Source: Blastocladiella emersonii ATCC 22665 (taxonomy: Eukaryota > Fungi > Blastocladiomycota). From it: 64,000 nucleotides of DNA. Under the pieces are notes generated by a model that did not search any database, was not told where the DNA came from, and was given only the letters and a program-made list of their open reading frames with translations. Both the position numbers and the translations under genes were made by a program. The stretch lies in contig JANHCV010000013.1 in NCBI GenBank assembly GCA_025594325.1, positions 434,001 through 498,000 of the forward strand, written 5' to 3'. Of the stretch, positions 15,056-33,745 are shown piece by piece; positions within the stretch are counted from its first letter, which is position 1, and every line of letters begins with the position of its first letter.

Positions 15056-15070
15056 ATGAACCGGAAGCTG
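15056..15070 (+). pseudogene. 5' stub (MNRKL) of the host gene interrupted by the virus
   Basis: ATG AAC CGG AAG CTG joins in frame to CCG CAG CTG CCG ATT GAG (33746 onward) when the element and one AGCTG are removed. Confidence 0.8.
15066..15070 (+). other. Left target-site duplication AGCTG
   Basis: Identical AGCTG at 33741-33745; both abut the TIR ends. Confidence 0.92.
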
Positions 15071-15096
15071 TGCCGTATCCCTTAAGGGATACGGCA
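15071..15096. repeat. Perfect 26-bp terminal palindrome TGCCGTATCCCTTAAGGGATACGGCA
   Basis: Self-reverse-complementary. The arm GGGATACGGCA recurs at 15227-15237. Confidence 0.98.
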
Positions 15097-15542
15097 TGGG
15101 CTGACCCACCACCACCCAGGCTGACCAATTGCTTACCCCAAGCGGTTGGCGGCAGTCACTCGGGCTAACCACGTGATTGGCAATGCGTTACCCCGAGTAA
15201 TATATTGAGATTTGCCAAATGCCCCAGGGATACGGCACGGGGGCGGGTGGCGGGTGGGTCACGTGGATCACGTGCAGATGAATGGCGCATGGGCACGGCT
15301 GCGAGTCAATCTGTGAGACAAGTCCAAGAGCAGATCCCTGAGCCCGTCCCTGACCAACCGCTCGGGCTGACCATTGCTTACCCCGAGCGGTCGGCGGCAG
15401 CTGGCAAGCGCAGCGAGACGAAGAGCAGCGCAGCTGCGGCTACCCACTGACAGAGTTCCATGGTCTGGTCCCTGACCTGACCCCCAAGCCCATCCCCGAC
15501 CACCTGCCGCAAGCGGCTGCTATGAAGCCACTCACCGTAAAG

Positions 15543-15612
15543 GTTCCACTTTCATGGCATATTACGACAGAGTATATATATACACTACCCTTTTTTGCCA
15601 TGAAAGTGGAAC
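15543..15612. promoter_or_regulatory. 17-bp inverted repeat flanking a 36-bp AT-rich spacer (candidate replication origin)
   Basis: GTTCCACTTTCATGGCA (15543-15559) and TGCCATGAAAGTGGAAC (15596-15612), with a spacer containing AGTATATATATACAC. Mirrored at 33199-33268. The structure is observed; the function is inferred. Confidence 0.55.
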
Positions 15613-16237
15613 TTTCAAAGACAAGAGGTCAGGGTACAGGGGGGGGGGAAGGTTGAGGACAAGGGAGCGTCTTAGCAGCATCAATGTATTGGGCAGGACA
15701 GGGGTCAGGGCAAGGGAGCGTCTTAGCAGGCAGCGTCTTAGCAGGCAGGAAGGCAGCGTGGCAGGTCGTGGAGTGTCTTAGAGCTCGTTGTTGTCCAGCT
15801 CGAGGACAAAGGTCAGGGACTGCTACGGGGTGGTCGTCCAGCTTGCCCAGTGAGCCGCGTGGCTGGTGAACTGACCAACCGCGTGGCTGGGGAATTAGCG
15901 CTATCCCTTGCCCTATAAGAACCCCCCACTGCCCCCCTCCCCAGACCTGCTCTCCACCACCCACAACAGAAGCCATGACACAGATTCACTGCCTCAAGCC
16001 CCTGCTGAGCGCGTATAGGCCATCTTGCTGCAATGAGCCCAACGCACTCACAGGACTTTTGGTATGGGTGTCATGGCCAACGTTGTGGGTGGTCAAAGTG
16101 TACGGCACAAGACGTACAGGGCTATCTGCTGTGCACGGCAATAGACTCGGTTGCTTGTGTCAGGACATGGAGCGCTGCGTGGACTTGCTACCCGTGCAGT
16201 TGCACCATGGACCTTTCTTCCTTTATCCTGTTGGCGC

Positions 16238-17375: not shown

Positions 17376-17405
17376 TTTACATGTACACAGCAAAAAAGTC
17401 GCAGC

Positions 17406-18152
17406 TCAGATGAACGCGAGCTCGATGTAGAAGGGTTGCCCCAGGAAGTCAACAGAGCGCAGGTTCTCGTCCACCACGTCAACGTCAATGGAGTCTATCA
17501 GCTGCAGTGTGCCTCGCGCGTCAAAGCGAAAGTAGTCGCTCATGTGTGGCCCGTGCTCGAACCAGCTCCCAAACGGCTGTGTGACATGGATACTGCACAG
17601 CACACCATTATCCTGCGGGTACGCCGAGAACATGTTGTCTGCAAGGCGGCTGCCCAGGTTGCACGAGTACACATGCAGCAGGTTGATGGGAGAGATGTTC
17701 ACCAGAGACGTCCCGTACTGGACCTTGCTGTAGCTGTAGCTGCTGACAAAGCCCATGTGCGTGTTCAGCGCAGCGGCCCCTGTCCCAACAGTGAAGTTGC
17801 AGGTGTCATTGGCAATGCGCATCTTCTGTGTGGTGGAGTCAACCTGCACGTCCCATGTGCCCTGCCACAGAAGACTTGACGGCGCGTTGTTGAGCAGGCT
17901 CTTGAGCGTTGACATGAACGTCTCAACTGTGTAGTTGCCGTCAGGGACAGTGATGGTCCCTGGGAAGGTCACACTGCCACGGCTCTGTGTCAGGTACACC
18001 TTGTTGGCCTTGGAGTTGACTGTGTGCCAGCTGTTACAGAGGTACGCTGAGTTGACCTTGACGCCGCTCACAGACACAGCCCGCGGGAGGTACAGCACAC
18101 CGTTCTTGAGGTCGCGGCTGCAGATGGTCAGTGTCTTGTAGGAGCCAGTCAT
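17406..18152 (-). CDS. Minor capsid protein (penton, single jelly-roll), PLV type
   Basis: TLTICSRD…, NSWHTVN…ITVPDGNYT…LKSLLN, INLLHVYS and IDVDVVDENLRSVDFLGQPFYIEL follow the PLV/Polinton penton pattern; close to the MCP gene. Confidence 0.85.
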   Translation of the reverse strand: MTGSYKTLTICSRDLKNGVLYLPRAVSVSGVKVNSAYLCNSWHTVNSKANKVYLTQSRGSVTFPGTITVPDGNYTVETFMSTLKSLLNNAPSSLLWQGTWDVQVDSTTQKMRIANDTCNFTVGTGAAALNTHMGFVSSYSYSKVQYGTSLVNISPINLLHVYSCNLGSRLADNMFSAYPQDNGVLCSIHVTQPFGSWFEHGPHMSDYFRFDARGTLQLIDSIDVDVVDENLRSVDFLGQPFYIELAFI

Positions 18153-18173
18153 TTAAGTAAGGCTTAGAAGATA

Positions 18174-18440: not shown

Positions 18441-18479
18441 TGCGTTTAACTGTACGCAAGAAAAGAATGCACGTGGGGC

Positions 18480-19700
18480 TTACTTGTAGAGGTTGACCTC
18501 GCCGGTTGGGAGAAACTCGTACACAATGTCAACACCAACAAAGGCGTCAACACGCTGGTTTGGGACAGTGCTTGAGGTGAGGATGATCTGCATGTCCACG
18601 GCCTGGCTCTTGCAAGACTTGTCGCCGCTGACAATGGTACGGGATGACTCGAGGTTGCGGCCAATGCAGAAGGTCCCCTCAGCTGGCGCATTGTACTTGT
18701 CCACTGACATGCCTGCACCAATGACATGGCCATGGAAGGCGTTGGACAGCTCTACAAAGGCCTCTGAAGCGTAGTTGTCACAGCGGACAGGCTTCTGGGG
18801 GAAGAGACAGCCACTTATGCTGAACTGGTACGTTGCAATGGTCTTGGCACGGAGGAACGAGTCCTTGGCATTGTCATTGAGCACTGCGTTGTCGCGGAAC
18901 GACACCAGCACGTCCTTTTGTGACGCACTGCGGTCAGAGACGTTGAGCGTAGAGTTGGGCACCGAGTAGTTGAGGAAGTGGTGGTTGTACGTTGTGCCGT
19001 AGAGCTTGAGACCCTGCTTCTTGAAGGCAGCGTCCATGACGGCGATCTGCTGGTCATTGAGCTTGATCAGGTCAGACACAATGCACACGTCCTTGACACT
19101 GTAGCTTGGGATGGCATTGTTCTTGACCACACAGGCATCTGCACCAGGAGCCAGGGTGAACTCGACGCAGATACCACCAAGGTACTTCATGGGCAGATGC
19201 TTCTGGTTGGACAGCAGTGCAGACTTGATGGGCAGCATGTACCGGTGAAGTCCAGATGACACAGCAAAGCGGTCAGCCCCAGTGGCAAAGTAACCCTGGG
19301 CCACGCCGAGGCATGAGTCCTTGAGGTGCTGCGGGACAGTCACGTCAGCCTCAATGCGCTGACGCAGGTTGTAGTAGGGAAGCTCTTCAAGCAGGGCTCC
19401 ACCCGCGCTGTAGACTCGCACACGGTCAATGATGCTGAAGATGCTATCACAGAAGGCGACGTTGGCGTCTGCAGTCTTGGCACTGAACTGCAGGAACGTG
19501 CAGTGGGTGTCCATCATGTCATTGCGCGGGGGCAGGAGGACACTGATAGTGTTGCCAGGTGCAAACTCAGGGCCGCCCTGTGCAGTGAACTGGACAGTCT
19601 GACGCTCGGCATACACAGACTCCTTGGGCAGGTTAAACGTCATCTCTGGCGGCAGAGTCTTTGACAGGACCTGGGAGAACTGGGCATTGGTGGAAGACAT
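18480..19700 (-). CDS. Major capsid protein (double jelly-roll), PLV type, about 406 aa
   Basis: EFAPGNTISVLLP…MDTHCTFLQF…SIIDRVRVYSAGGALLEELPYYN and C-terminal FCIGRNLE…SG…VDAFVGVDIVY. Likely start MSSTNAQF at 19700. Confidence 0.88.
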   Translation of the reverse strand: MSSTNAQFSQVLSKTLPPEMTFNLPKESVYAERQTVQFTAQGGPEFAPGNTISVLLPPRNDMMDTHCTFLQFSAKTADANVAFCDSIFSIIDRVRVYSAGGALLEELPYYNLRQRIEADVTVPQHLKDSCLGVAQGYFATGADRFAVSSGLHRYMLPIKSALLSNQKHLPMKYLGGICVEFTLAPGADACVVKNNAIPSYSVKDVCIVSDLIKLNDQQIAVMDAAFKKQGLKLYGTTYNHHFLNYSVPNSTLNVSDRSASQKDVLVSFRDNAVLNDNAKDSFLRAKTIATYQFSISGCLFPQKPVRCDNYASEAFVELSNAFHGHVIGAGMSVDKYNAPAEGTFCIGRNLESSRTIVSGDKSCKSQAVDMQIILTSSTVPNQRVDAFVGVDIVYEFLPTGEVNLYK

Positions 19701-19743
19701 GGCGTGTGTTACTGAAGCACAAGAAAAAAAGTCGCTGCGTCGC

Positions 19744-20544
19744 TTAGTCCTTGATGATCCACTCACTGAAGCTGTCTACCAGCCTGTACTTGGGACTGTT
19801 CTGGTTGTTGACACCAAGGAAGCGTTGCTTGGTGTTGCCCTCTGAGCGGGTGTCAAAGAGCTGCTCAATGATCACCTCAAACTCCTTGAGCGAGAACTGC
19901 GACCCGATCTCCTTGTGCAGTGTCTTGACCTCTGTCTTGTCATAGATGGGGTACACAACGCTGTAGCTGCAGTTGATGCGCAGTGTCTTGGGCAGAGCAC
20001 ACCAGCGCTGCACGCCAATGATGCAGCTGATCTTGAGGTGTCGCGAGTTGCACAGGAAGTTGGTCAGCGTCTTGTGGGACAGCAGCTTGAGGCCCAGCAC
20101 GTCGTCAATGATCAGCAGCTGGTCCTGCAGTGCCTTCTTTCCCTGGTCTTCAAAGGTCTTGGTCAGGTCTTTGCGCATCTTGAGCAGCGTGGGGATGAAC
20201 AGCTCTGGGTCCGTGACAATGCACAATGGCTTCACCTTGAGCTGGTTTGGGTTGTGCTCCTGTGGATCAAGTACATTGTGCTGCTTCTTGGGTGGTCGCA
20301 GGATCGCCTGTGAGGCAATGTACTCGTACTTGTCATCAGCGTGGAAGGTGGGGTTGAAGACCCAGATGTTGTCAAAGCGTCCCTTGTAGAACTGCGGGAA
20401 GCACACAAGGTTGGCAATCAGTGTTGACTTGCCCTGACCCTTGGCGCCAATGACGTTCATGGTGAAGGGGTGCTTGGGGATGGGCGAAGGCTGGTTGTTG
20501 TTGTTCCTGGTGAAGCCGTTGTCAATGGCCACAATGTTGTACAT
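19744..20544 (-). CDS. A32/FtsK-HerA-family DNA packaging ATPase
   Basis: Walker A VIGAKGQGKST, Walker B LLIIDD, RHLKIS…VQ…LPKTLRIN. Likely start MYNIVAID at 20544. Confidence 0.93.
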   Translation of the reverse strand: MYNIVAIDNGFTRNNNNQPSPIPKHPFTMNVIGAKGQGKSTLIANLVCFPQFYKGRFDNIWVFNPTFHADDKYEYIASQAILRPPKKQHNVLDPQEHNPNQLKVKPLCIVTDPELFIPTLLKMRKDLTKTFEDQGKKALQDQLLIIDDVLGLKLLSHKTLTNFLCNSRHLKISCIIGVQRWCALPKTLRINCSYSVVYPIYDKTEVKTLHKEIGSQFSLKEFEVIIEQLFDTRSEGNTKQRFLGVNNQNSPKYRLVDSFSEWIIKD

Positions 20545-20569
20545 CTTACTGTACCCCAAGACAAAAGGT

Positions 20570-22288
20570 TCACGCCCATCCAAGGTCAGTGACAATGCCA
20601 CTGCGCTTGGGGACTTCGCGCACTTGCTTGACTGGTCGCTCAGGGAGCTTCTGGTGACGCTTGATCTGGGGTGCTGTCAGGCCACTGCCAGCCGACGTCT
20701 TCTCTGTGAACAGCTTCGCGTCCAGGGGCTTCTTGTAGCCCAGTTGCTTGAGGATCTGTTCGAGTAACATCTCTGTCTTCTTACTACTACCCTCGGAATT
20801 GTTCTTGGGCGCGTCTGCAAGCTGTCGGATGAGCTGCTCCAGGTTGCTGGTGTCCAGGACCTGTGGCTGTGCTGGCGGCTGCATTGTGTCCAGCTTGCTG
20901 CCCAGGTCCTGGAGTGTCTTGTTCACAGCAGCATTGGACTCTGTCTGTCCCTGGATGGCGCTCTGGACACCTGTTGCAAGCTGGCCAATGAGTCCCTGCT
21001 GGTTGGTCAGGGCAGTTGACATGCCGCTTGCAATCTCAGACACCAGTGCACGGTTCCCTGCGTCAATCTGTCGCACAAAGGCGTTGCGCTCTGCACGCAG
21101 TGTGTCCACAATGTTAGCTGCAAGGTTGGCAAAGGTCTCAAGTGCCAGTCCTTGGGCGTTCTTGGACTGCTCAATCAGGGCCATGTACGCCTGGTACTGC
21201 ATGACCTGACTGTTCGCAAACTGGCCAGCAATGACGTCCAGCGCAGCCATCACGCTGGGGTCGCTGTTGTACTGCACCATGATCTGTGTACGCAGGTCAT
21301 TGTTCTGCTGGTAGCAGTTCTGCTCGTACTGTGTGATGTACTGCCGCATGTCGTAGTTCTGCGTGTTGTCCTGCTGGAAGCTGCTGTAGACGTATTGATT
21401 GAACTGCTGAAAGTTCTGGACAATGTCGACCTCCATGTTGTCTGTTGTGGTCAGTGCCTGCTCTGGGTTGTAGACCTGGATGTCCTTGGAGCCTTCAATC
21501 ATCCGAGACTTGTTCATGGTGGGATGTACGTGTGTGTCATTGTACACAGAGCCGCGCTGTGGAAAGTCCTGTCTGTAGCTGGGAGGGACAACAACCAGGT
21601 TGCATGTGCCATCGTCGAGCCGGGGTGGAAGGTCATTGCCGCCGTTGTTGTCATTCTGGATCAAGTAACATCCAGGGATCATGCCAGCGTACTCTGGGAT
21701 GTCCTGGCCAACGTAGTCACCAGCGTCCACAGGGTACTCTTCAGGGACAACTGGGCGGACAGGTACGGGCAAGAGATGGTCAGGCACACGCTGCCCTGCT
21801 GTCTCAAGCATCTCAGCAAGTTTGTCCAAGGTGTCCTGTGGCCTCTGTGAGCCTATGCCAGAGTCTTGTGTGCTTAGGACGTCTGGTGTGTCTGCGCCTG
21901 TGTCAGAGTCTGGCGTGCCTTCCTGTGCAACAGGAACACGTTGGATGCCACTGCTAACGCTTGTGCTTGCTTGCTTGATGGTGTCATAGACGTGCTGCAT
22001 GACGCTCTCTGAGTCTTGCCCCATGATCTCTCCATTGTGTCTCAGGAACAGCATCCCTGATTGCTTGCCCTCAAAGTCGTCTGCATAGCTCTCTGGTGTG
22101 ACAGCGTAGTCAAAGGCAAGGATGTACGGGACCCACACAGTGAGGAACTCCTTGGCTGTGGGGAAAGTGTACGCGCGTTCATCAATGGTGGCCTTGATCC
22201 TCTGGCCAGGCATGCGCTCTGCAGTGATATGACTGTTTGTCTTGGCTGCAACGTCTTCCAGTTGCTTGGTGATGGGTCTTCGTGTCAT
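20570..22288 (-). CDS. Viral hypothetical protein (about 572 aa), Gln/Asn-rich with coiled-coil C-terminal half
   Basis: Long ORF; likely start MTRRPITKQ at 22288 after the conserved motif. No family recognised. Confidence 0.8.
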   Translation of the reverse strand: MTRRPITKQLEDVAAKTNSHITAERMPGQRIKATIDERAYTFPTAKEFLTVWVPYILAFDYAVTPESYADDFEGKQSGMLFLRHNGEIMGQDSESVMQHVYDTIKQASTSVSSGIQRVPVAQEGTPDSDTGADTPDVLSTQDSGIGSQRPQDTLDKLAEMLETAGQRVPDHLLPVPVRPVVPEEYPVDAGDYVGQDIPEYAGMIPGCYLIQNDNNGGNDLPPRLDDGTCNLVVVPPSYRQDFPQRGSVYNDTHVHPTMNKSRMIEGSKDIQVYNPEQALTTTDNMEVDIVQNFQQFNQYVYSSFQQDNTQNYDMRQYITQYEQNCYQQNNDLRTQIMVQYNSDPSVMAALDVIAGQFANSQVMQYQAYMALIEQSKNAQGLALETFANLAANIVDTLRAERNAFVRQIDAGNRALVSEIASGMSTALTNQQGLIGQLATGVQSAIQGQTESNAAVNKTLQDLGSKLDTMQPPAQPQVLDTSNLEQLIRQLADAPKNNSEGSSKKTEMLLEQILKQLGYKKPLDAKLFTEKTSAGSGLTAPQIKRHQKLPERPVKQVREVPKRSGIVTDLGWA

Positions 22289-22326
22289 GGTGGTTACTGT
22301 ATGAAGCGAAAATAAACCCTGGGCAA

Positions 22327-22469
22327 GGTACACTTTGCACCTGTCTGTGGTACACTTTGCACCGTCAAGGGTACACTTTGCACCTGTCTGTGGTACACTT
22401 TGTACCGTCAAGGGTACACTTTGCACCTGTCTGTGGTACACTTTGTACCGTCAAGGGTACACTTTGTAC
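22327..22469. repeat. 7 copies of GGTACACTTTGYAC with alternating 22/21-bp spacing (43-bp higher-order unit)
   Basis: Copies at 22327, 22349, 22370, 22392, 22413, 22435 and 22456; linkers alternate CTGTCTGT and CGTCAAG. Confidence 0.93.
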
Positions 22470-22680
22470 GTTGTGCATTGCGCTTGGCGTTGAGTGCCTT
22501 GTAGATGCGGATCTTGACGCGCTCTGCCCGTGCTGCCTCACTGTCAACGTGGACAAAGCGACTGGCCTTGCAGTCCCTCTTCTGTAGCCACTTGGCCTTG
22601 TCCTTGTCGCTCTTGTTGTACCAGTTGGATGGCACAGGGAACGTCCCTGCAAGGTGTTCACGCCACTCATCAAGGGACAT
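22408..22680 (-). CDS. Small basic viral hypothetical protein (about 90 aa)
   Basis: MSLDEWREHL…KAKWLQKR…RIYKALNAKR; the C-terminus runs into the repeat array; start codon uncertain. Confidence 0.45.
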   Translation of the reverse strand: MSLDEWREHLAGTFPVPSNWYNKSDKDKAKWLQKRDCKASRFVHVDSEAARAERVKIRIYKALNAKRNAQRTKCTLDGTKCTTDRCKVYP

Positions 22681-22723
22681 GTCCTGGTACTCTGAGCAAT
22701 TCATTTCTTGCACTAAGTTAAAC

Positions 22724-24580
22724 ATGGTCAAGAATATATTCAACGTGTCTACCAACGTGTCACCAACAGTGTCGGCCACAGGTGTCTCAGACGTGTCCAA
22801 GGCATATGTTGATGCTGCCATCAGTGCTGTCTATGCCACAGTTGGTGCACCTGTCGCTGGGCCTGGACTCAGCGTGTCAGGGACAACTGTCTCTGCCAAG
22901 GTCAATGACCAGACACTGGGTGTTGGTCCAAGCGGTCTCTATGTCAAGTCAATCAGTACGGCCCAGCTCCTGCCAGCCAGCGTCACAGCAGACAAGCTTG
23001 TGAGTGTCACAGCTGCACAGGTCACAGGTAAGCTTGTTGATGCACAGCTGGACACTGTGTCAGCATCCAAGGTCACTGGTGTGCTCAGTGCGTCCAGCCT
23101 TCCTGTGCTTGGGACAGCGTCCATTGCAGATGGCTCTGTGACAGACGCCAAGGTTGCCTCAGTGTCTGGGTCCAAGCTGGTTCCAGGAAGTGTCTCAACA
23201 CCTGCTCTTGCAGACGCCTCAGTGACAGACGCCAAGGTTGCGTCTGTGTCCGGGTCCAAGCTGGTTCCAGGGACTGTCAGCACAGCAGCACTTGCAGACA
23301 CCGCAATAACAGATGTCAAGGTTGCCTCAGTGTCTGGGTCCAAGCTGGTTCCAGGGACTGTCAGCACAGCTGCCCTTGCAGACGCTGCTGTCACCAACGC
23401 CAAGCTGGCCACTGGTATAGACGGTGCAAAGCTCAACGTGTCATCTGTGGGAACAGCACACCTTGCAGCAGGGTCAGTCACCAATGCCAAGGTCACAGAT
23501 GTGTCTGCCACCAGGCTGACAGGGACGCTTGATCCTGCACGCATTGCAGACAGTTCACTGACCAATGCCAAGCTGGCCACTGGGATAGACGCTGCCAAGT
23601 TGTCTGGGACCATTGACCTTGCACGACTGCCTGACGTGTCCAGCAAGGTGTCAAGTGTCAACGGAGCCATTGTCACTGGGACGCTCCCCCAGTCCACCCT
23701 TGGACTTGGCAGTGTCTTTACCTTTGCCAGTACTGTGGACAGCACATCAACGTCCACTGGGGCAGTCACTGTGGCAGGTGGCCTTGGTGTGGGCAAGCAG
23801 CTCACTGTGCCAAACGTCCTTGTCCGGAACACAGTCAGTGCAAATGTGGTCTTTGACTCTGCTGCCAACACACTCACATACATTGACTTCAAGCAAGCAG
23901 GTGTCCTGAAGAGCAACCTGGCATGCACTGCACTGGGCACCATTGAGATTGCTTCAGCAACCAATGGTGGTGTGTCCTTGGCTGCAGGTGGCGGCAACGT
24001 GGTTGTGGGCTCGGCGACGCTTGGCACAGAAAAGCTCCGTGTCAATGGCACTGGTCGCTTCACAGGGCAGCTCACCCTTGACCTCGCTCCAGTGGCAGGC
24101 ACTGACGCAGCAAACAAGGCGTACGTTGACTCGCGGTCTGGCATGACCCGGTACGTCGCTCAGGCTGAGCACCGCTCTACAAACGGAGTGACCACAGGTG
24201 GCAAGATCATTGGCAGCACAGCATCGACGGGCCCGGCCACCTTTGCGTTCCAGTCCACGGCAGGCGCGTTCACGTCTGTGATCAATGGATGTGTCAAACC
24301 CCCTGTCAGTGGCTACTACCTCGTCCATGCAAAGGGCTATTACGCAAACGGCACGCTCCCTGGAGCCCACACTGTGAACTTTGCGCTGTACAATATGACG
24401 GACATGATTGCAGTGTCACTTGTCACCGGGTGCCGCGCTGAAGGCAACGTCCAGTTCCTTCAGTTCTTGAGCATTGAGTACCTTGACGCGGCCAAGAGCT
24501 ACTCTTTCATCTGGATCCCGTCGGTCGCAGTTGCCAACAACTGCCAGGTCATCATTCAAAGCCACTGGACCCTGCTCTAA
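22724..24580 (+). CDS. Fibre/spike-like virion protein (about 618 aa) with phage-tail-fibre-type repeats and a putative C1q/TNF-like head
   Basis: 28-aa repeats ADASVTDAKVASVSGSKLVPG.VST.AL (84-bp DNA period), VTNAKLATGID.AKL, DAANKAYVD and C-terminal PVSGYYLV. Start MVKNIFNV at 22724. Confidence 0.75.
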   Translation: MVKNIFNVSTNVSPTVSATGVSDVSKAYVDAAISAVYATVGAPVAGPGLSVSGTTVSAKVNDQTLGVGPSGLYVKSISTAQLLPASVTADKLVSVTAAQVTGKLVDAQLDTVSASKVTGVLSASSLPVLGTASIADGSVTDAKVASVSGSKLVPGSVSTPALADASVTDAKVASVSGSKLVPGTVSTAALADTAITDVKVASVSGSKLVPGTVSTAALADAAVTNAKLATGIDGAKLNVSSVGTAHLAAGSVTNAKVTDVSATRLTGTLDPARIADSSLTNAKLATGIDAAKLSGTIDLARLPDVSSKVSSVNGAIVTGTLPQSTLGLGSVFTFASTVDSTSTSTGAVTVAGGLGVGKQLTVPNVLVRNTVSANVVFDSAANTLTYIDFKQAGVLKSNLACTALGTIEIASATNGGVSLAAGGGNVVVGSATLGTEKLRVNGTGRFTGQLTLDLAPVAGTDAANKAYVDSRSGMTRYVAQAEHRSTNGVTTGGKIIGSTASTGPATFAFQSTAGAFTSVINGCVKPPVSGYYLVHAKGYYANGTLPGAHTVNFALYNMTDMIAVSLVTGCRAEGNVQFLQFLSIEYLDAAKSYSFIWIPSVAVANNCQVIIQSHWTLL

Positions 24581-25689
24581 AGCCCGCGGTCCCACTTTTC
24601 TTGGACTCGGACTGGGACGCGCCTGACCTGGGTCGAGGGCTCCCTTGGCATGACCGGGGTGCGCGCAGCAGGGAGCCTTGGGAGACTTGGACCTACGCGC
24701 TGCCTTGTTGGCGGGTCCTGGGTCGCTGTGACTGGCTGGACGTCGCTGCGTGGATAGAAGCCCTTCAAGTCACCAACCTTGTACAATGGGTTGCTCACAC
24801 TAGAGCCCTTGCGGACAGCTGTGACTTGGTGCACTGTGGACGTCCATACTGGCTTTCCCTTTGCTTCCATGGCTGTCTTGTACGGCTCACGGACACGTAC
24901 CTGTGTTCCAACTTTGAGCAGCGCACTGAGTGGGTCACCCTCTGGCTTGCCCTTGGCAGCACGGATGGCCTTGAGTGTGTCCTTGGCAGCGTCTTGCGGC
25001 ATGTCATGGAAGTCATTGGGCGCCTTGCCTGTAGCTCTGGACTTGCTGCTGTTGATCACGGACTCTATGGTCTCAAGGTGCTTTGGCCAGTTGTTGTTGC
25101 CTTCAATGGACAGCCACGGTGTCAGCATCCTGCAAATGGTCCCGTTCATACGCTCAACTACTCCCTGACTGTATGGCACACCTGCCTTGCCTTTGATGTG
25201 CTTTGCGCCTGTCCCCGCTTCAATGCCATTGAACTCTGTGCCATTGTCTGTCTGGATGGTTGCTGGTGTCAGGTTGTGCTTGGAGACAACGTCGTCCCAT
25301 GCCTGCCGTGTCAGGTCCTTGGTCTTGACTGGACGCAGGAACACGCGTCGAGTTGCCAAGTCTACACAGGTAAGAATGTACCTGAACCCGTTGAAGGTAC
25401 CTTTCTTGCCCATGTCTATGAGGTCCAGCTGCCAGTTGCAGCCAGGACTGGTGGACACAATGCTTTGGATGTTGCGCCGCTTCTGTGGTGCACACTTGTA
25501 CTGCTGCCACACAGACTGCTCATTGAGCCACCTCTCCAGCTGTGCGCGGTACACGTGGTCACCAGTGTTCTCTCTGGACACAATGTCAAAGAGCCAACAG
25601 ATACCAACACCAACATTGCCGCGCTTGTAGTACAAGTCTGTCAGGAACGCTTGCTGTGCGTCTGTGAGTGGTGCTTTGTGTGGATACAT
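24577..25689 (-). CDS. Retroviral-like (rve, DDE) integrase of Polinton type
   Basis: WQLDLIDM…LTCVDLATR, IQTDNGTEF and PYSQGVVERMN give a D-D-E triad. Polinton-type C-terminus VGTQVRV…KGKPVWT…YKV.D.KGFYPRSDVQPV. Its stop overlaps the fibre stop (CTAA). Confidence 0.93.
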   Translation of the reverse strand: MYPHKAPLTDAQQAFLTDLYYKRGNVGVGICWLFDIVSRENTGDHVYRAQLERWLNEQSVWQQYKCAPQKRRNIQSIVSTSPGCNWQLDLIDMGKKGTFNGFRYILTCVDLATRRVFLRPVKTKDLTRQAWDDVVSKHNLTPATIQTDNGTEFNGIEAGTGAKHIKGKAGVPYSQGVVERMNGTICRMLTPWLSIEGNNNWPKHLETIESVINSSKSRATGKAPNDFHDMPQDAAKDTLKAIRAAKGKPEGDPLSALLKVGTQVRVREPYKTAMEAKGKPVWTSTVHQVTAVRKGSSVSNPLYKVGDLKGFYPRSDVQPVTATQDPPTRQRVGPSLPRLPAARTPVMPREPSTQVRRVPVRVQEKWDRGL

Positions 25690-25712
25690 TACATTACGGC
25701 AACAAAACAAGG

Positions 25713-26654
25713 TCAGACAAGGTAGTGGGCCACGGCGACAGGTACGCTGTGACCCATCTCAGCAGCACGCTTGGCCACGGCCTCATACGCGTCCTTGTTC
25801 TCACTGGTGCTGATGCGGCGGATCTGCTGGACACCGCACCCCTTGAAGCCAACGTCCTGTGCTGCCAGCGCAATGGTCTTGGACCAGTCTTTGCGGACCT
25901 TGGCGTTGACCTGAGCATCACAGACGTTGTCCAGGCTGTGGTTGTAGAAGACCAGGTCATGGCCATCAGCAAGACGCTTGGCAATGATGCGCTCAAGGGC
26001 TGCAGCAACCTTGGGGTCAGCAATGACATGCGAGAACCCGTAGCCACGGCCATCTGTCTTGACGCACACAGGGCCGGCCAGCGTCTTGGTCTCGGGGTTG
26101 TAGCTTGGGTACTTGTCACTGGGCTTGGTGGTCAGGAACGCAAGGTCACTGCGGGTTGCACAGACGACTTGGAGGTACAGACGCAGAGCACGCATTGTGC
26201 CAGACACCTGGTATGTGTCCCAGTTCTCAGCAGCAACAACAGCAGCCAGCAAGTCTTCACGGCTTGGGAGTGCACCAGTCTCCACAGCCTTGCGCGCGTC
26301 AAGGTGAGCTTCAGCGTCCTGCTTCTTGGCCTGCGTGTACTGTGCAGCAAGGTTGTTGTTGCCATTCCACTTGCAGTACTTGGCCAGCGCCTTGAGCGTC
26401 TCAACCTGCAGACCCTGTGCCTTGTCTGTGCCCTTGGTTGCACGGTACGTCTCCACAGCCTTTGTCATACTGTTGACGTCCTCAATGGCCAGCCCCGACT
26501 TGCAGAACGCAGTCAGCACGCAACACAGCTTGGACTGGTCATCGGCACTGAGCTGGGACACTTGGCCGTACTTGTTCACCACAGGCTCACTGGCACACGC
26601 CTTGATGGATTCCTCGGTCATCTGCGCGTACTTGACCTGGGGATCAGTGTCCAT
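25713..26654 (-). CDS. Tyrosine recombinase-like protein (about 313 aa)
   Basis: Putative catalytic set: R (ATRSDL), K (CVKTDG), QQIRR at the HxxR position, and terminal MGHS…AHY. The ORF stays open upstream to a GTG at 26714. Confidence 0.72.
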   Translation of the reverse strand: MDTDPQVKYAQMTEESIKACASEPVVNKYGQVSQLSADDQSKLCCVLTAFCKSGLAIEDVNSMTKAVETYRATKGTDKAQGLQVETLKALAKYCKWNGNNNLAAQYTQAKKQDAEAHLDARKAVETGALPSREDLLAAVVAAENWDTYQVSGTMRALRLYLQVVCATRSDLAFLTTKPSDKYPSYNPETKTLAGPVCVKTDGRGYGFSHVIADPKVAAALERIIAKRLADGHDLVFYNHSLDNVCDAQVNAKVRKDWSKTIALAAQDVGFKGCGVQQIRRISTSENKDAYEAVAKRAAEMGHSVPVAVAHYLV

Positions 26655-26984
26655 GGGCTCGCCAGACTCGTTGGCGGGGGTGTCATCGGAACTGTGATTG
26701 CAGTCACGTGACACTGCAGCCAGCGCGGCGAGGCTGGTCTCGATTTGCCGTCACACAGCCTTTGGCTGGCACCGGCGCAGGGCTTTGCCCTCTCGCCCTT
26801 GCCCAGACTTGCGCCGCGCACGCTCTCGCACTCCCTGACCAAATCGTGCAACTCGCCCGCCTCCCAGCATGCATGCGGACGCTTGCCGACCCTGCGCTCC
26901 GGGCACGGTGATGTTCAGGTTGCGCATGATGGCGAGGTCGATGAAAAATTTTTTTTTAAGGCGGCCAGCGTCGCTTCGTCGAGT

Positions 26985-27850
26985 TGATTATCAGCGCCGC
27001 TTTGTTGGGTTGAAGTTCAACGTCGCCTTGTTGTGTTGATGACCAGCGTCGATTGATGACCAGCGTCGACTTGTCGGGTCAATGATCAGCGCCGCCTTGT
27101 TGGGTTGACAATGAGCATCGCCTTGTTGCGTTGATGTCCAGCGTTGCCTTGTTCAGTTGGAGTTCAGCGTCGTCTTGTTGCGTTGAAGTTCAGCGTCGCC
27201 TTGTTGCATCAAAGCTCAGCGTCACCTCGTTGCGTTGACGACCAGCGTTGTTGCATTGACAACCAGCGTCACCTCGTTGCATTGTGATCAGCGTCGCCTT
27301 GTTGGGTCGTGATCAACGTCGCCTTGTTGCATTAATGATCAGCGTCAGCTCGTTGTGTCAATGACTAGCGTCGCCTTGTTGCGTTGATGGCGAGCGTCGC
27401 CTTGTTGCGTCAATGACCAGCGTCGCCTTGTTGCGTTGATGACCAGCGTCGCCTTGTTGCGTCAATGACCAGCGTCACCTTGTTGCGTCGATGACCAGCG
27501 TCACCTCGTTGTGTCAATGACAAGCGCTGCTTTGGTGAGTTGTTGGTCAGCGTCGCCTCGTTGAGTTCAAGTCCAACGCGTCTTTGTTGAGTTCGTGATC
27601 AGCAGCGCCTCGTTGCGTCAATGACCAGCGTCGCCTCATTGCGTTGCGTTGATGATCAGCGTTGCCTTATTGGGTTGACAATCAGCGCTGCGTTGTGTCT
27701 ACGACCAGCGTCACCTTGTTGAGTTTGTAATCAGCGTCGCCTTGTTGAGTTCGTAATCAGCGTCGCCTTGTTGCGTTCATGATCAGCGTTGCCTCGTTGC
27801 TTTCATGATCAGCGTTGCCTCGTTGCATTGATTGCCAGCGTCGCCTCGTT
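26985..27850. repeat. About 33 degenerate copies of a 26-bp tandem repeat, consensus CAGCGTCGCCTTGTTGCGTTGATGAC
   Basis: Period 26 is clear at 27421/27447/27473; no ORF of 60 aa or more lies in 26988-28053. Confidence 0.92.
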
Positions 27851-28476
27851 CCATTGCTGAGCGACGCCGCGCCACGCAACACTGATTGAAGAAGAGATGA
27901 TGATCGAGTGCTGCGCTTGAGAGTCGACAAACAAACGAGTTGAGTTAGCTCAGACTACGCTGAATTCGTCATAGCAAAACTATTGCGTTCCTGTCAAGAT
28001 TCTGCCCCAACATATGGTTGCTCATCTCTATTGCGACACGATCAAGGCAAGGATCAGGGGCTGCGACTCAACTCAGCCGCGCTGCTGCTGCTGTTGCCGC
28101 ATAACATGCTGCGCAGAGCGACAGTGACAAGGTAACACGTAAGGTGAACCGCCAACTTGGCGCGGATGCGGCTAAAGTCGCACAGCAACCAAGAAACGTC
28201 ATTGACACATGAAGAAGCAACAACAGAGTACATATTTGTTGCGGGTTGACTTTGATTCAGCGAGGGCGCGCGAGGGAGAAAGGGCGAGGGGACGCGTTCA
28301 GCCACTCACGTGACATGATGAGGCAAGCCCAAATGTGACAATCAACGCCAGACCCGGTGGCGGAGCAGGTGGTGGAGGCACGGTTGCAGATGCGGTAGGC
28401 GGAGGTGCAGGACCAGAAGGCGAAAGCGACCTGGGTGCGACTGTTGAGGACAAGGTGTTTGAAGTAAGTGCAGCGC

Positions 28477-28842
28477 TTACGTGCGCGTTGAACGGCGGCA
28501 CGCGTGTTGAAAGTTCAGCGCGGTCGTTGGATCGTTGTTGATGAGGGCGAGGCGGAGAGCTGAGAGAGAGGACGGGTCGCGCAGATCTGCGGCGGACAGC
28601 GACAGCGACGTGAGCAGTCCATGGTATGCATCAATCAGCTCATGGAGCTTCTTGCCGACAGGTTCAGGGGCGCGTGTATGAGCAGAATGCTGAGCGAGCC
28701 ATGCGGCAGCGTGTCAAGCGGCAGCAGCGCGGTGGCCGTGCGACGCGAAGGTGGCGTAGTTGCTCGAGTCGGGGCAAAGCCAGTCGACAAGGCGGTCACA
28801 CTCCTCCGCGGTCCACCTTGGCCGACTCTCGTGTTGCGGCAT
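28477..28842 (-). pseudogene. Myb/SANT-like DNA-binding protein with one in-frame stop
   Basis: MPQHESRPRWTAEECDRLVDWL…NY…AAAA*HAAAWL…R.PEPVGKKLHELIDAY; TGA at 28714-28716, and the same frame continues to TAA at 28477. Confidence 0.55.
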
Positions 28843-28933
28843 GTTACAGCCGCTCAAGTTTTCGTTTCGTGGAGGAGAAGTGGAGTGCGCAACGTCGCCT
28901 GAGCCAAAGTCGCGAGCAAGCCGCAAAACGCGT

Positions 28934-29182
28934 TCAGCCACAGTCACGTGACATGTATGACGTGATGAAACCAAGTGAAATCCGCCAAAAGCACGTGACA
29001 CAGACCGAGACTTTCGAAGGGGCCACCCAATATTTCAGGGCAAAGCCCTGCACTCCCTTGAACCGCTCATCAAAGGACGCCAGCAGCGGCTTGATACCAT
29101 CGAGCACTTGGTGCACTACGTTGGCGGTAACGTGCTGAGCAACAACCTTGGGCACCTGGGACACGAGCGCTTCGAGAGACAT
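28934..29182 (-). CDS. Small viral hypothetical protein (82 aa)
   Basis: MSLEALVSQVPKVV…; preceded by CTTCTTTTCTGGGGCTACGGTAAGATG, closely similar to the ATPase upstream motif. Confidence 0.55.
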   Translation of the reverse strand: MSLEALVSQVPKVVAQHVTANVVHQVLDGIKPLLASFDERFKGVQGFALKYWVAPSKVSVCVTCFWRISLGFITSYMSRDCG

Positions 29183-29271
29183 CTTACCGTAGCCCCAGAA
29201 AAGAAGGCGTCACTGACTCAAGTGCGTTTGGCGGTATCGTTAAATATATTGTGCGTCAATGGTAGGACACC

Positions 29272-29766
29272 ATGTACTACGACAGCGACAGCGACAGCCA
29301 TGTCCCCAACCCCCTTGATGAGTTCCTGCTTAGCATTGCTTACTGCAGAGGCAAGGTGGTTGACTTTGACAAGGTGAAGGCCTTGACCATGGACGCTGCA
29401 CGCAAGGCATGGCTGGGCAATGACAAGTCTCTGGCAGAGGCCATGAAGACGCTGCGTGTTGTTATTGCCCGTCTTGCAGTGTTGCAGCACGTCCAAGGGG
29501 CGCCTGTGAAGACACAGCAGCTGTACGACAGCACGTCAATGAAGCGGCTCCTGCCAGACATCCCCTTGAAGAAGGGTGCTCCCTCAATTGACTTTGACCA
29601 GCTTGCACAGGACTTTCCTCTGGACACGTCCGAGTGGGATGCCATCAAGGTAGAGTACCAAGACTGGCTCAAGAAGCAGTCTTCCAAGCGACTTGCCCGG
29701 CTGTGTGTGCGCCCAGAGCGGAAGCCCAAGAAGAAGGCTGAGAGCGACTCTGACCTGAGCAAGTGA
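29272..29766 (+). CDS. Viral hypothetical protein (164 aa) with basic NLS-like C-terminus
   Basis: Clean ORF with viral codon use; RPERKPKKK. Confidence 0.7.
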   Translation: MYYDSDSDSHVPNPLDEFLLSIAYCRGKVVDFDKVKALTMDAARKAWLGNDKSLAEAMKTLRVVIARLAVLQHVQGAPVKTQQLYDSTSMKRLLPDIPLKKGAPSIDFDQLAQDFPLDTSEWDAIKVEYQDWLKKQSSKRLARLCVRPERKPKKKAESDSDLSK

Positions 29767-29772
29767 ACACAC

Positions 29773-29920
29773 CAGGACGGGACAAGGACACAATGCACAG
29801 GACGGGACAAGGACACAATGCACAGGACGGGACAAGGACACAATGCACAGGACGGGACAAGGACACGATGCACAGGGCAGGCCAACCAGGACGGGACAAC
29901 GACACAGTGCACAGGACAGG
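29773..29920. repeat. 25-bp tandem repeat (CAGGACGGGACAAGGACACAATGCA), 4 copies plus a degenerate copy
   Basis: Copies at 29773, 29798, 29823 and 29848. Confidence 0.92.
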
Positions 29921-30021
29921 CCATGCCAACAAGGGCTCCCGGGGCACAGTCATTAACGCTAAATCCTGCGCGTTTAAACGCACCTGTCCTGTCACCCTTT
30001 CTGTTACCTCATCATAACAAC

Positions 30022-33000
30022 ATGGTCTGCAATCAGGTTCCCAGTAAACATGGCACCGCCTTTGGTCTCAAGTGGTTCCATGGCAAGGATGGTGGCGACA
30101 GCGACATGGGCCCTCAGCGCACGCTCTTGTCCGAGCTGCAAGACAACGAGACAGTCATCAAGCGCCTCGTTGACAAGGGCGTCGACAACCACAGCCAACC
30201 CAAGGCGGCGCACTACTTTGCCAAGGTCAAGACAGCTGACCTGGCCGGGCTCCTTGACAAGAACTGCTGCATCCAGGAGATGGTCCACCCCAATCGCCTG
30301 TCCAAGGTCTACTTTGACATTGACTGCCCAGGCAACCGCAAGGACGTGACCCTGGACGTCATCAAGAAGGTCATCCTGACCCAGGTCCCCAGCGCCAACC
30401 TCCAGGTCTGCAGCTACGAGACGGACCTCAAAAAGTCATGGCACATTGTCCTCAGCAACTACACGGCCACGCTCAAGGACATGCCGTTCCTGAAGCTGTT
30501 CTGCAGCCACCCCGACCATGTCAAGCTTGGCTTTGACTCCAGCGTGTACAGCAAGCACCGCTTCATGAAGTGCATCAACCAGTCCAAGCCCAAGAAGACG
30601 CCCAGCGTGTGGATCTCGGGTAACAAGGACCGCCTGTCCAAGCACTTGATCCAGTGCGACTTTGACCCCAACTGCGCGTCGGTCTTGGACCTGTCCTTTG
30701 AAGAGGTTGTGACTGCCAAGGCCAAGGAAGCGCGGACCAAGCGCCACGTGGGTCGCCTTGACTACGACCTTGACATCCCCGAGTTCAAGGACGTGCAGAT
30801 CGACCCCGACTTCTTGTACTACGACGCCACGCCACTCGAGATCCTCCACAACATCCCCATCAGCCCCGAGAACGCGTTCCACAACAACGTGACCTGGCGG
30901 ATCATGACATGGGCCATGCGCAAAGGGGTCACATTTGACCAGTTCTGGGCGTGGACGTCGCAGCAGGACAACTCGGCTCAGCGCATGCAAAAGTACTGGG
31001 GCCGATGGAACGAGATTGCCAGCAACGACAACTACCAGGTGCTGGACACGTTTGTCAAGGCCATCTTCTACAAGTGGTTCCCAGCCGCGTTCAAGTCCAA
31101 GGCCATGGCCAAGTTTGAGCAGTCGCTTGAGGTACCGGTGGACGTGACCAGCCCCAACCAGTTCCTGTCCTGCAACAACATTACCCTGGCCAAGTTCAAC
31201 GTGCTGGCCACGGGCATGGGCTCCAACAAGATGGGCGCTGTTTGCGACTACATTGCCAAGTACCCAGACGCGCAAGTGGTCTGGATCACACCTCGCATCA
31301 CCCTGGCCCACAACACCGAGGGTCGAGCCTGCGAACAGAAGCTTGGCTTTGTCAACTACTGCAGCATCAAGGACAAGAAGACACTGGGGGATCACAAGCG
31401 ACTCATTGTCTCGCCGTGCTCGCTGCACTACTTGACCAAGCCCTACAACATTGTTGTGGTGGACAAGTCTGAGACGGTCCTCAAGATGTTCCAGGACGCC
31501 AAGTTGCACACAACCACCATTCGCAACAACCTCGAGGCCAACCTCAAGGCCTTCAAGACGCTGTGCGAGCACAAGGGCAGCAATGGTATCTTCATGGACG
31601 CGTTTGTCACAAACCTGACCATGGACGTCCTCCGCTCCTTTACTGTCGAGCACAACATCAAGACCATACTCCATGGTAAGATCAAGGTGATCACAAACAC
31701 GCTCGGCAAGAATTTTGAGCCGCACAAGATGAGCCTCATCACCGACGACAAGGACAACGAGAAGTCCGCCGAAGACATCATGGAGAGCAACATCATTGCC
31801 GACCTCAAGGCCAACAAGAAGCTCTACCTCTTCCTCCCACGACCATGCAAGACGTCAACCAAGTGGTCGGTGCAGACCTTTGGCGAGTACCTCGAGCGGG
31901 TCTTTGCCAAGGAGACGTGGAAGATTGGCAAGCAGATCAAGCTCTACCACGGCGACCGCCCCAACCACGAGGACAAGGAACTCATTGACCCTGACTCTGT
32001 GTGGGGCGACAATACGGTCCGTATAGTCATCGCCAACCTCAAGATCACTGTGGGGGTCAACTTTTTGAAGCCATACGTCTTCCACAAGGTGTACGCGCGC
32101 TACAAGTCCTGGGTCCCTGCCCGCGACTTCTTCCAGGCAATCTACCGCGTGCGCTACCCCATTGACAACGAGATCGTGTTCATGATCAGCCATGGTTGCC
32201 GCGGCGCGTACATGAACAAGTTACAGGTCATTGACTTGGACTCGGTCGGCAAACTTCACCGGGCTATTGTCAAGAACACGGATCTCGAGAACGAGATGGC
32301 CGCTGTGACCTTCTGCCTCAAGGTCTTTGACGCCTTCCGCAAGGTCATCAACATTGTCATGGACAACTCCCCCAAGTACTACTACAAGGCGCACCCCGAG
32401 ATTAAGGATGTCATGACGTTGGGCTGGTCTTTTGAATGGGCAAACGTCCAGCTACCGTCCAAGGAGATCATGCGCGCCTACTGCAAAGGTACCATCAAGG
32501 ACCCGGACTGGACCATCTCCCTCTCCGTCCGCAAGGCCTTCTTCATCCGCAAGTTCAATGGTCTGAGCATGGACAACATGAAGATCATCTGGGACGACAA
32601 CGCGGAGAGCTTCATGGAGCGTATCCAGCACTTTTACACCAAGGACAAGGGCCACGTCCTGCAAAAGCTCCTGGAACACAACGACATGGACCTCCGCACG
32701 TCCAAGGAGTTCAACATCCAGGCCACCATCCCCGCCAAGTTTGAAGCAGACATCCACAAGTACTTCAAGAAGCTTGGGTATTACAAGTGTGACACAGCAA
32801 CAGTCCTAAACAGGCTTCTCAGCACTTACTTTAACAAGTGCCTTGCTGTGCCAGACAAGGACGAACCCCGGGTCTCAGTACGCGGCAAGAAGTACAGTAA
32901 CCTGAAGTGGACAGACAACATTCTGTACTTTGTCATGTACGAGACCTGGACCCCACCCCCGGCCAATCTGGCCCCGTTTGTCCTGGAGATGGACGAGGAC

Positions 33001-33033
33001 GAGGACAACAACGAGGACAACAACGAGCTCTAA
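30022..33033 (+). CDS. AEP primase(-polymerase) fused to a herpes UL9/origin-binding-protein-like SF2 helicase (about 1003 aa)
   Basis: AEP motifs YFDID, SWHIV and DSSVYSKHRFMKCINQSK. Helicase motifs TGMGSNKM, VVWITPRITL, VVVDKSE, FMDAF, LYHGD, ITVGVNF and FQAIYRVR. Likely start MVCNQ at 30022; the last codons lie inside the right TIR. Confidence 0.85.
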   Translation: MVCNQVPSKHGTAFGLKWFHGKDGGDSDMGPQRTLLSELQDNETVIKRLVDKGVDNHSQPKAAHYFAKVKTADLAGLLDKNCCIQEMVHPNRLSKVYFDIDCPGNRKDVTLDVIKKVILTQVPSANLQVCSYETDLKKSWHIVLSNYTATLKDMPFLKLFCSHPDHVKLGFDSSVYSKHRFMKCINQSKPKKTPSVWISGNKDRLSKHLIQCDFDPNCASVLDLSFEEVVTAKAKEARTKRHVGRLDYDLDIPEFKDVQIDPDFLYYDATPLEILHNIPISPENAFHNNVTWRIMTWAMRKGVTFDQFWAWTSQQDNSAQRMQKYWGRWNEIASNDNYQVLDTFVKAIFYKWFPAAFKSKAMAKFEQSLEVPVDVTSPNQFLSCNNITLAKFNVLATGMGSNKMGAVCDYIAKYPDAQVVWITPRITLAHNTEGRACEQKLGFVNYCSIKDKKTLGDHKRLIVSPCSLHYLTKPYNIVVVDKSETVLKMFQDAKLHTTTIRNNLEANLKAFKTLCEHKGSNGIFMDAFVTNLTMDVLRSFTVEHNIKTILHGKIKVITNTLGKNFEPHKMSLITDDKDNEKSAEDIMESNIIADLKANKKLYLFLPRPCKTSTKWSVQTFGEYLERVFAKETWKIGKQIKLYHGDRPNHEDKELIDPDSVWGDNTVRIVIANLKITVGVNFLKPYVFHKVYARYKSWVPARDFFQAIYRVRYPIDNEIVFMISHGCRGAYMNKLQVIDLDSVGKLHRAIVKNTDLENEMAAVTFCLKVFDAFRKVINIVMDNSPKYYYKAHPEIKDVMTLGWSFEWANVQLPSKEIMRAYCKGTIKDPDWTISLSVRKAFFIRKFNGLSMDNMKIIWDDNAESFMERIQHFYTKDKGHVLQKLLEHNDMDLRTSKEFNIQATIPAKFEADIHKYFKKLGYYKCDTATVLNRLLSTYFNKCLAVPDKDEPRVSVRGKKYSNLKWTDNILYFVMYETWTPPPANLAPFVLEMDEDEDNNEDNNEL

Positions 33034-33740
33034 GACACTCCACGACCTGCCACGCTGCCTTCCTGCCTGCTAAGACGCTGCCTGCTAAGACGCTCCCTTG
33101 CCCTGACCCCTGTCCTGCCCAATACATTGATGCTGCTAAGACGCTCCCTTGTCCTCAACCTTCCCCCCCCCCTGTACCCTGACCTCTTGTCTTTGAAAGT
33201 TCCACTTTCATGGCAAAAAAGGGTAGTGTATATATATACTCTGTCGTAATATGCCATGAAAGTGGAACCTTTACGGTGAGTGGCTTCATAGCAGCCGCTT
33301 GCGGCAGGTGGTCGGGGATGGGCTTGGGGGTCAGGTCAGGGACCAGACCATGGAACTCTGTCAGTGGGTAGCCGCAGCTGCGCTGCTCTTCGTCTCGCTG
33401 CGCTTGCCAGCTGCCGCCGACCGCTCGGGGTAAGCAATGGTCAGCCCGAGCGGTTGGTCAGGGACGGGCTCAGGGATCTGCTCTTGGACTTGTCTCACAG
33501 ATTGACTCGCAGCCGTGCCCATGCGCCATTCATCTGCACGTGATCCACGTGACCCACCCGCCACCCGCCCCCGTGCCGTATCCCTGGGGCATTTGGCAAA
33601 TCTCAATATATTACTCGGGGTAACGCATTGCCGATCACGTGGTTAGCCCGAGTGACTGCCGCCGACCGCTCGGGGTAAGCAATTGGTCAGCCTGGGTGGT
33701 GGTGGGTCAGCCCATGCCGTATCCCTTAAGGGATACGGCA
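33015..33740 (-). repeat. Right terminal inverted repeat (726 bp), with terminal palindrome at 33715-33740
   Basis: Reverse complement of 15071-15796 with 3 mismatches. Confidence 0.97.
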
Positions 33741-33745
33741 AGCTG
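33741..33745 (+). other. Right target-site duplication AGCTG
   Basis: Matches 15066-15070. Confidence 0.92.

Follow-up and report, generated by a model that had tools for sequence, protein, structure and literature searches.

An rve integrase, a tyrosine recombinase and perfect terminal palindromes in a polinton-like provirus of Blastocladiella emersonii: a predicted in/out model

Why should an integrating virus keep two mechanistically unrelated recombinases next to each other? The question is raised by a 64,000-nucleotide stretch of the genome of the fungus Blastocladiella emersonii ATCC 22665 (contig JANHCV010000013.1, positions 434,001 to 498,000; the window, with positions counted from its first letter). 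An insertion of 18,670 bp (15071-33740) in this window is a polinton-like provirus that encodes a DDE integrase of the rve family (24577..25689) and a tyrosine recombinase (YR; 25713..26654). Both genes lie on the minus strand, the YR gene upstream, with a gap of 23 bp. The initial annotation, made from the sequence alone, described them as two unrelated recombinases side by side, and our analysis bears this out: the first has an rve Pfam match and a DDE triad, and the second has a YR fold and catalytic residues. We predict, with a probability of about 0.45, that rve integrates the element and that the YR either excises it or resolves replicated end junctions at a palindrome present at both termini. 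The initial annotation, too, had suggested excision, or dimer or telomere resolution, as the job of the YR.

The element is bounded by a 5-bp target-site duplication (TSD), AGCTG (15066..15070 and 33741..33745), and by terminal inverted repeats (TIRs) of 726 nt each that differ by 3 mismatches. The left TIR (15071..15796, plus strand) starts with TG and the right TIR (33015..33740, minus strand) ends with CA. When the flanks were translated separately, a single host reading frame was seen to run across the TSD site, which supports these borders. The start of the host frame broken by the provirus (15030-15070 and 33741-34144) is presumably F-box-like; similar F-box/LRR-type open reading frames (ORFs), with LRR assigned by Pfam scan, are located at 13319-14869 and 34836-36515.

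TG..CA ends with a short TSD are hallmarks of rve integrases, and the element has both. As had been pointed out from the start, such ends fit rve chemistry, and the YR is not needed to explain the insertion, which was likely made by the rve integrase. The 370-aa integrase matches Pfam rve with an E value of 2.2e-7 and 31.5 bits, slightly under the cut-off of 32.6 bits. Its D89, D148 and E179 are invariant in five of five aligned rve sequences and make up the DDE triad of an rve domain. The second D and E are 31 residues apart vs about 35 in relatives, and an equally short distance is found in the rve portion of gene model P0018, which comes from another copy of the element. No chromodomain match was found in the integrase. 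Cys or Trp stands at several rve positions of this copy that are occupied by Arg or His in another.

The 313-aa YR product, which begins at an internal Met, comprises a core-binding and a catalytic domain with R168, K199, R279, H302 and Y311, and with Q276 at the HxxR position. Profile searches returned little: the protein had no match in a Pfam scan and weak unrelated matches only in PHROGs, Pfam Phage_integrase matched two of nine YR relatives (best E 0.0049), a profile search of PDB sequences retrieved 2 unrelated chains only, and comparing profiles against individual sequences of Cre, lambda Int and TelN yielded no match (probability 0.2). The fold was recognized with an AlphaFold model (pLDDT 80.8, pTM 0.64). 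Out of 29 top rows of a VIA structure search with this model, 28 were YR, YR-derived or topoisomerase IB domains; XerA was matched with Z 9.9 (rmsd 13.5, 235 residues aligned), XerH with Z 8.8 (5.4, 246) and Cre with Z 8.8 (5.9, 234), and the N-terminal domain was matched to the lambda core-binding domain with Z 5.8 (3.3, 84). The best Foldseek E value against PDB was 0.017. Five BFVD matches were found at E<=0.001, including giant-virus proteins, an Aureococcus virus and a virophage protein, and the nearest Atlas clusters are Preplasmiviricota proteins. The gaps between R168, K199, R279, H302 and Y311 are 31/80/23/9 residues, compared with 28/91/23/9 in Cre and 23/76/22/9 in lambda Int. Since there was no profile match to Cre, lambda Int or TelN, the catalytic positions were assigned from motif spacing, conservation and fold instead of a direct alignment. 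With the fold taken from the predicted model, the ORF is confirmed to have a YR-superfamily fold with R, K, R, H and Y at canonical spacing. The initial annotation had staked its reading on finding this fold and these residues, and the reading survives. Site-specific cleavage via a 3′-phosphotyrosine is a predicted activity of the protein.

As annotated initially, the HxxR position of the YR is occupied by QQIR, with Gln in place of His. His at this position is moderately conserved in YRs (about 87%) and is not required. None of the YR relatives examined has it: the first residue is either Q or A in each of the 24 family sequences covering the site, R in P0010, and S, S, N, K and Q in five environmental YRs. 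What had been called atypical is thus the rule among these relatives. In Cre, every substitution of His289 other than by Asp, Glu, Lys, Arg or Trp is reported to be active in vivo, with Gln and Ala tolerated, and about 1% of YRs have Gln at this position (PMC2943603). The tolerance has a limit: two relatives have Lys and Arg, respectively, and both residues belong to the substitutions that are inactive in Cre. Sequence comparison indicates that a non-His residue is a trait of the group and is compatible with activity. The idea that QQIR is special was dropped, because no relative has His there and Cre tolerates Gln.

At each end of the element there is a perfect 26-bp palindrome (15071..15096 and 33715..33740), built as 10+6+10 bp, flush with the TSD and ending exactly at TG/CA on both sides. 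It is the longest perfect palindrome in the window, others having 7-bp arms, and the left copy folds with a z of -6.3 (0/200 shuffles). In assembled contigs, no variant letters are listed within the palindrome, while variants occur at positions 15110-15147 and the palindrome is preceded by several different flanks. YR sites have an arm-core-arm layout, and the palindrome is a candidate YR site or hairpin end. Inside the TIRs, inverted 17-bp boxes surround an AT-rich spacer (15540..15615, mirrored at 33196-33271; fold z -7.95) and may be origin-like; in an element with a UL9-like helicase, we take this layout to recall a herpes origin. An 11-bp copy of the palindrome arm about 130 bp inside the end (15227..15237, mirrored at 33574-33584) is possibly an accessory binding site. 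For comparison, the TelA site has half-sites of 13-14 bp and a 6-bp stagger (PMC3558466). No exact match to the 26-bp palindrome was found in IMG/VR, and the checked ends of environmental rve contigs (10, mostly of fragments) showed no terminal palindrome.

The YR is a core gene of the B. emersonii element family. A YR gene is present within 3-6 locus tags in 19 of the 22 listed capsid-module loci (the list covers 15 of the 26 largest-cluster members, and for 4 loci the gene next to the capsid stands in for it). Of 25 YR family sequences, 20 retain all five catalytic residues, down to 35% identity; the exceptions are two sister copies with R168C, one sequence with R279Q and the two halves of one split locus. 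Gene model P0018 fuses YR to rve in frame and so has the same gene order in another copy; the join (cf. 25650-25720) may reflect either an error of gene prediction or true splicing. Those close relatives of the YR and capsid that carry names are all labelled Blastocladiella emersonii. Scans of IMG/VR and JGI gave no close YR relatives, and relatives of the capsid were not found in IMG/VR. P0010 and P0031, distant relatives of the YR (27-29%) and of the capsid (36%) on Logan contigs of 7-11 kb, show that the lineage extends beyond this species.

Environmental elements were searched with rve. An IMG/VR scan with the rve of the window returned 39 loci, of which the 3 with near-full coverage were analyzed; in both distinct elements among them, YR lies beside rve. 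In a second scan, 17 of 30 loci were analyzed, 13 short weak matches being set aside; with L060 also set aside, the remaining 16 loci represent 13 distinct elements. YR adjoins rve in 4 of these 13, as a YR-then-rve tandem in three (L044, L045, L047) and convergently in one (L052/L053), and is found elsewhere on the contig in another (L050). The three tandems are on unrelated contigs with GC contents of 26-39%. The replicase, where visible, is Prim-Pol (L004/L005, L047), and PF03175, the profile of protein-primed PolB (pPolB), matched none of 11 environmental records. The convergent element (L004/L005, or L052/L053) is a virophage with a Sputnik-type capsid, Prim-Pol and an SF2 (superfamily 2) helicase, and its rve and YR genes overlap.

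In the window itself, the YR gene is split and its first codons are cut off by an insertion. The earlier assumption that the 313-aa ORF is the whole gene was dropped; the ORF is the C-terminal part of the split gene. The frame continues upstream of the internal Met as far as the insertion (26655..26742, minus strand), where tblastn of P0004 and P0018 reaches 26711-26729, and the separated N-terminal ~44 codons are at 29052..29182 (minus strand). The latter segment, read from 29182 to 29052, is 52-57% identical to the N-termini of the longer paralogues P0004, P0007 and P0018 (E<=5.6e-9), and the frame resumes below 26742. Contigs of four out of four runs, all from one sample, join 26741/26742 to 29052. 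The 2,309-bp insertion (26743..29051, minus strand) is a Helentron-like (HINE-like) non-autonomous element. It has 15-bp palindromic subterminal inverted repeats (subTIRs; 29037-29051 and 26777-26791), a 3′ stem-loop (fold z -2.7, 4/200 shuffles), a central 26-bp tandem array of about 31 copies and no TSD, which corresponds to the anatomy described for HINEs: subTIRs of 12-15 bp, 3′ stem-loop, tandem repeats and no TSD (PMC4067079). With its gene split, the YR of this copy would depend on complementation in trans or on an internal initiation site.

How could the two enzymes work on the same element? From what is shown, namely the anatomy of the element, the folds of both enzymes, their catalytic residues and the conservation of the pair, we infer the following steps. 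YR dimers would bind the 10-bp arms and cut across the 6-bp core at the palindrome centre. The product would be either a circle with one palindrome at its junction, as with Cre or Xer, or hairpin ends; Cre-like circle formation is the likelier of the two. Replication of the released genome by the primase-helicase of the element would start at the origin-like repeats in the TIRs. The rve integrase would then nick after CA, 13 nt past the symmetry axis, and circle or hairpin alike would yield 3′-CA-OH ends on single-stranded palindrome. Strand transfer with a 5-bp stagger, followed by host fill-in, would restore a complete palindrome at both ends, directly abutting the TSD. Thus, a donor with a single palindrome, nicked by rve after CA and filled in by the host, would give a palindrome whose limit coincides exactly with the processed CA, as seen at both ends; the return of the provirus to the donor form would need a cut at the palindrome centre, which the YR could supply. 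In favor of YR action at the palindrome we count its perfection, its length and its exact TG/CA limits, the lack of listed variants within it next to variable TIR positions, the arm-core-arm layout, which is like that of YR and resolvase sites, the retention of catalytic residues down to 35% identity in a YR that is a core gene, and the YR-rve adjacency (4/13) together with Prim-Pol replicases and the 0/11 result for pPolB. Published work points the same way: YRs go with AEP or PolA replicases (10.64898/2026.10.13.758929), palindromes beside TSDs are mainly a feature of non-pPolB elements (10.64898/2026.07.28.741278), and YRs have been suggested to act on PLV inverted repeats (PMC11296320).

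Several observations weigh against this proposal. No YR was found in 8 of the 13 environmental elements, several of which are fragments, and the 4/13 share is inflated, since the query of the second scan included two YR-adjacent rve genes. In two records with complete inverted terminal repeats (G010, G011), rve is present and neither a YR nor pPolB was matched, so that rve without pPolB does not require a YR. The YR subfamilies are 35-65% identical and the capsids 81-96%, and the palindrome is apparently fixed; there is thus no covariation between enzyme and site. The YR gene is located 7-10 kb from the element ends, not beside them. Finally, Halocafeteria polinton-like virus (PLV) subtype 4 is described as having terminal palindromes, and the PLVs of that host do not encode both rve and YR (10.64898/2026.07.28.741278).

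Palindromic ends also raise the question of whether the YR is a hairpin telomere resolvase. Enzymes of the TelN/TelK/TelA/ResT group, whose chemistry is treated in PMC12270096, and the phaeovirus resolvase resemble it in YR-type chemistry, a non-His residue at HxxR and a palindromic site with halves of about 13 bp (PMC3558466, PMC13236599); here, the 26-bp palindrome at both ends is a candidate target of this kind. They differ in the segment from the second Arg to His, which is 23 aa in our YR, 33 in TelN (R383-H416) and 28 in TelA (R366-H394; PMC3558466). On this active-site spacing (23 vs 28-33), a yardstick of our own that compares two references, TelN and TelA, the YR does not fit the group. 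Protelomerases are not preferred by fold searches: TelA first appears at rank 15 of the Foldseek PDB search, with an E value of 0.057, and the top 50 VIA rows contain no protelomerase, which does not exclude this group. PF16684, the ResT-TelK catalytic profile, matched 0 of 9 YR family members. In Atlas, a resolvase cluster (0.96, 147 features shared) is slightly under an integrase cluster (0.97). In phaeoviruses, the resolvase site lies internally, and integration relies on a YR instead of rve; a resolvase is reported in a giant-virus endogenous viral element (PMC13236599). It is in our estimate quite improbable that a resolvase which evolved independently from an ordinary viral YR excises the provirus directly as an N15-like hairpin-capped linear genome, with rve opening the hairpin at CA, reinserting the element and rebuilding the palindrome. 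If true, this variant would be a closed cycle of rve in and resolvase out, in place of protein priming, in a eukaryotic integrating virus.

Alternatively, the two enzymes might be integrases for two targets, with rve serving the fungal chromosome and the YR inserting a circular form into a helper giant-virus genome via an att site. The idea has been published for virophages with rve and YR (PMC8547959; 10.64898/2026.07.28.741278) and for OLV11-like YRs (PMC4642659), and giant viruses of zoosporic fungi, which infect Blastocladiomycota, have been reported (PMC13533422); the integrase-like active-site spacing of the YR and the giant-virus and virophage proteins among its best BFVD matches agree with it. 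Yet no att site or helper virus was found, and the idea accounts for neither the terminal palindrome nor the way out of the chromosome. We regard it as somewhat doubtful. We think it unlikely that the YR is a passenger or transitional gene that arrived with the primase-helicase module, the palindromes priming replication as hairpins and rve or host enzymes handling the ends alone. There are published models of module turnover (PMC11296320) and of hairpin priming without a YR (10.64898/2026.07.28.741278), rve elements without a YR exist, the YR of this copy is interrupted and two sister copies have R168C. However, the catalytic residues are kept across subfamilies that are just 35% identical, the YR-then-rve order is found in three unrelated contigs, and damage in a single copy fits the general CpG decay of the provirus. 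The least probable case, and a very unlikely one, is that the protein is a YR-derived DNA-binding regulator with weak or no catalysis: the loss of the HxxR His, the lack of a Pfam YR match and the presence of the YR-derived regulators SroF, MrpR and Ndc10 among the fold matches would agree with this, but R, K, R, H and Y are all at the expected spacing, and Gln and Ala are tolerated in vivo at Cre His289 (PMC2943603).

The remaining gene content is that of a PLV. A 406-aa major capsid protein (18480..19700, minus strand) was assigned to the double-jelly-roll (DJR) class by predicted-structure matches: its model, of low confidence (pLDDT 43), matches DJR capsids in BFVD (best E 6.7e-10) and the PBCV-1 capsid (Z 10.5). 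The capsid gene adjoins a 248-aa ORF (17406..18152, minus strand) that had no Pfam or PHROG match at E<0.1 and, by position only, is likely a minor capsid protein. An A32-like packaging ATPase (19744..20544, minus strand; Pfam Pox_A32 E 9.4e-13) and a 572-aa ORF without a family in Pfam and PHROG scans (20570..22288, minus strand) follow. On the plus strand there are a repeat-rich, likely fibre-like protein (22505..24580; Pfam Phage_Tail_Tip E 1.4e-6 across 43 aa; 84-bp repeats), a 164-aa ORF with no family in the Pfam scan (29272..29766) and a likely fusion of a primase with a UL9-like SF2 helicase (29818..33033). The latter has no Pfam match; its nearest Atlas cluster scores 0.98, with Herpes_ori_bp in 70% of the members, and the DxD primase label is our assumption. 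It is the sole large replication ORF: among the 13 element ORFs scanned there was no Pfam match to PolB, and none to a protease. Thus, the DJR capsid (from the low-confidence model), A32 ATPase, TIRs and a size within 15-40 kb place the element with PLVs, and the pPolB of Polintons is not found.

The Walker A/B motifs of the helicase (31204-31479) look degenerate in this copy (GMGSNKM, VVDKS), and, with the altered rve positions, this may mean that the copy is inactive. The CpG o/e (observed/expected) ratio is 0.56-0.72 in the provirus vs 1.24-1.29 in the host flanks, with an excess of TpG/CpA. Among the best-supported 40 of about 1,015 rows of differences, 29 of 33 T>C/A>G differences are in TpG/CpA context vs a background of 43%. 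The CpG depletion suggests host methylation of the virus. The nested Helentron-like insertion is not CpG-depleted (o/e 1.19). Intergenic tandem arrays with units of 36 bp (16236-16590), 21/43 bp (22327-22466) and 25 bp (29773-29923) are present in the provirus. Outside of it, repeats of 29-34 bp, several of which contain a 14-bp palindrome, form an array at the start of the window (148-359), and the flanking DNA contains an XMAP215 gene recognized by Pfam scan.

Parts of this arrangement are known, and the pairing is not new, having been published for virophages (PMC8547959; 10.64898/2026.07.28.741278). Mid-GC EMALE virophages of Cafeteria burkhardae are likewise integrated, bounded by TIRs and encode both an rve integrase and a YR; they differ in being virophages, whereas our element has a 406-aa capsid without a Sputnik-type Pfam match and a fungal host, and the strings “palindrom” and “hairpin” do not occur in the available text on them (PMC8547959). 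In Halocafeteria seosinensis virophages and PLVs, TSD-adjacent palindromes are found mainly in non-pPolB elements, and rve occurs with a YR in a virophage subset; there, the PLVs do not have both enzymes together, the palindrome shown is 52 nt long, and the palindromes are tied to hairpin priming, not to a YR (10.64898/2026.07.28.741278). OLV11-like and other PLV and virophage YRs are divergent viral YRs like ours, but they replace rve, while both are kept here (PMC4642659). Polintons/Mavericks share the rve integrase, TIRs, short TSD, DJR capsid and A32 ATPase; our element lacks a pPolB or protease match among the ORFs scanned and has a primase-helicase and a YR.

YRs are reported to track AEP (archaeo-eukaryotic primase) or PolA replicases rather than pPolB (10.64898/2026.10.13.758929), and it has been proposed that YRs act on the inverted repeats of PLVs and that dimers are resolved (PMC11296320). 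PLV genes are described in Allomyces and chytrids (PMC7805220; 10.64898/2026.06.19.733378); fungi are excluded from PMC10120064, and “polinton” is not found in PMC9730499. Our literature search, with subscription journals, figures and preprint supplements outside its scope, found no paper that ties a PLV YR to a terminal palindrome or describes these Blastocladiella elements. The rve-YR pairing and the TSD-adjacent palindromes each have a precedent, and here the pair is family-wide. The novelty lies in the pair and palindromes occurring together within one family of fungal PLVs, in the recurrence of the YR-rve tandem and in an in/out model that can be tested.

Should the YR be only a second integrase, the locus would be a new host record of a known arrangement. 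The results extend the rve-YR pair from virophages to a fungal PLV and suggest that the tandem is a recurring module. They bear on how integrated PLVs without pPolB leave the chromosome and replicate their ends, and the B. emersonii family provides the two enzymes, a candidate site that is short and defined, and many copies within a single fungal genome.

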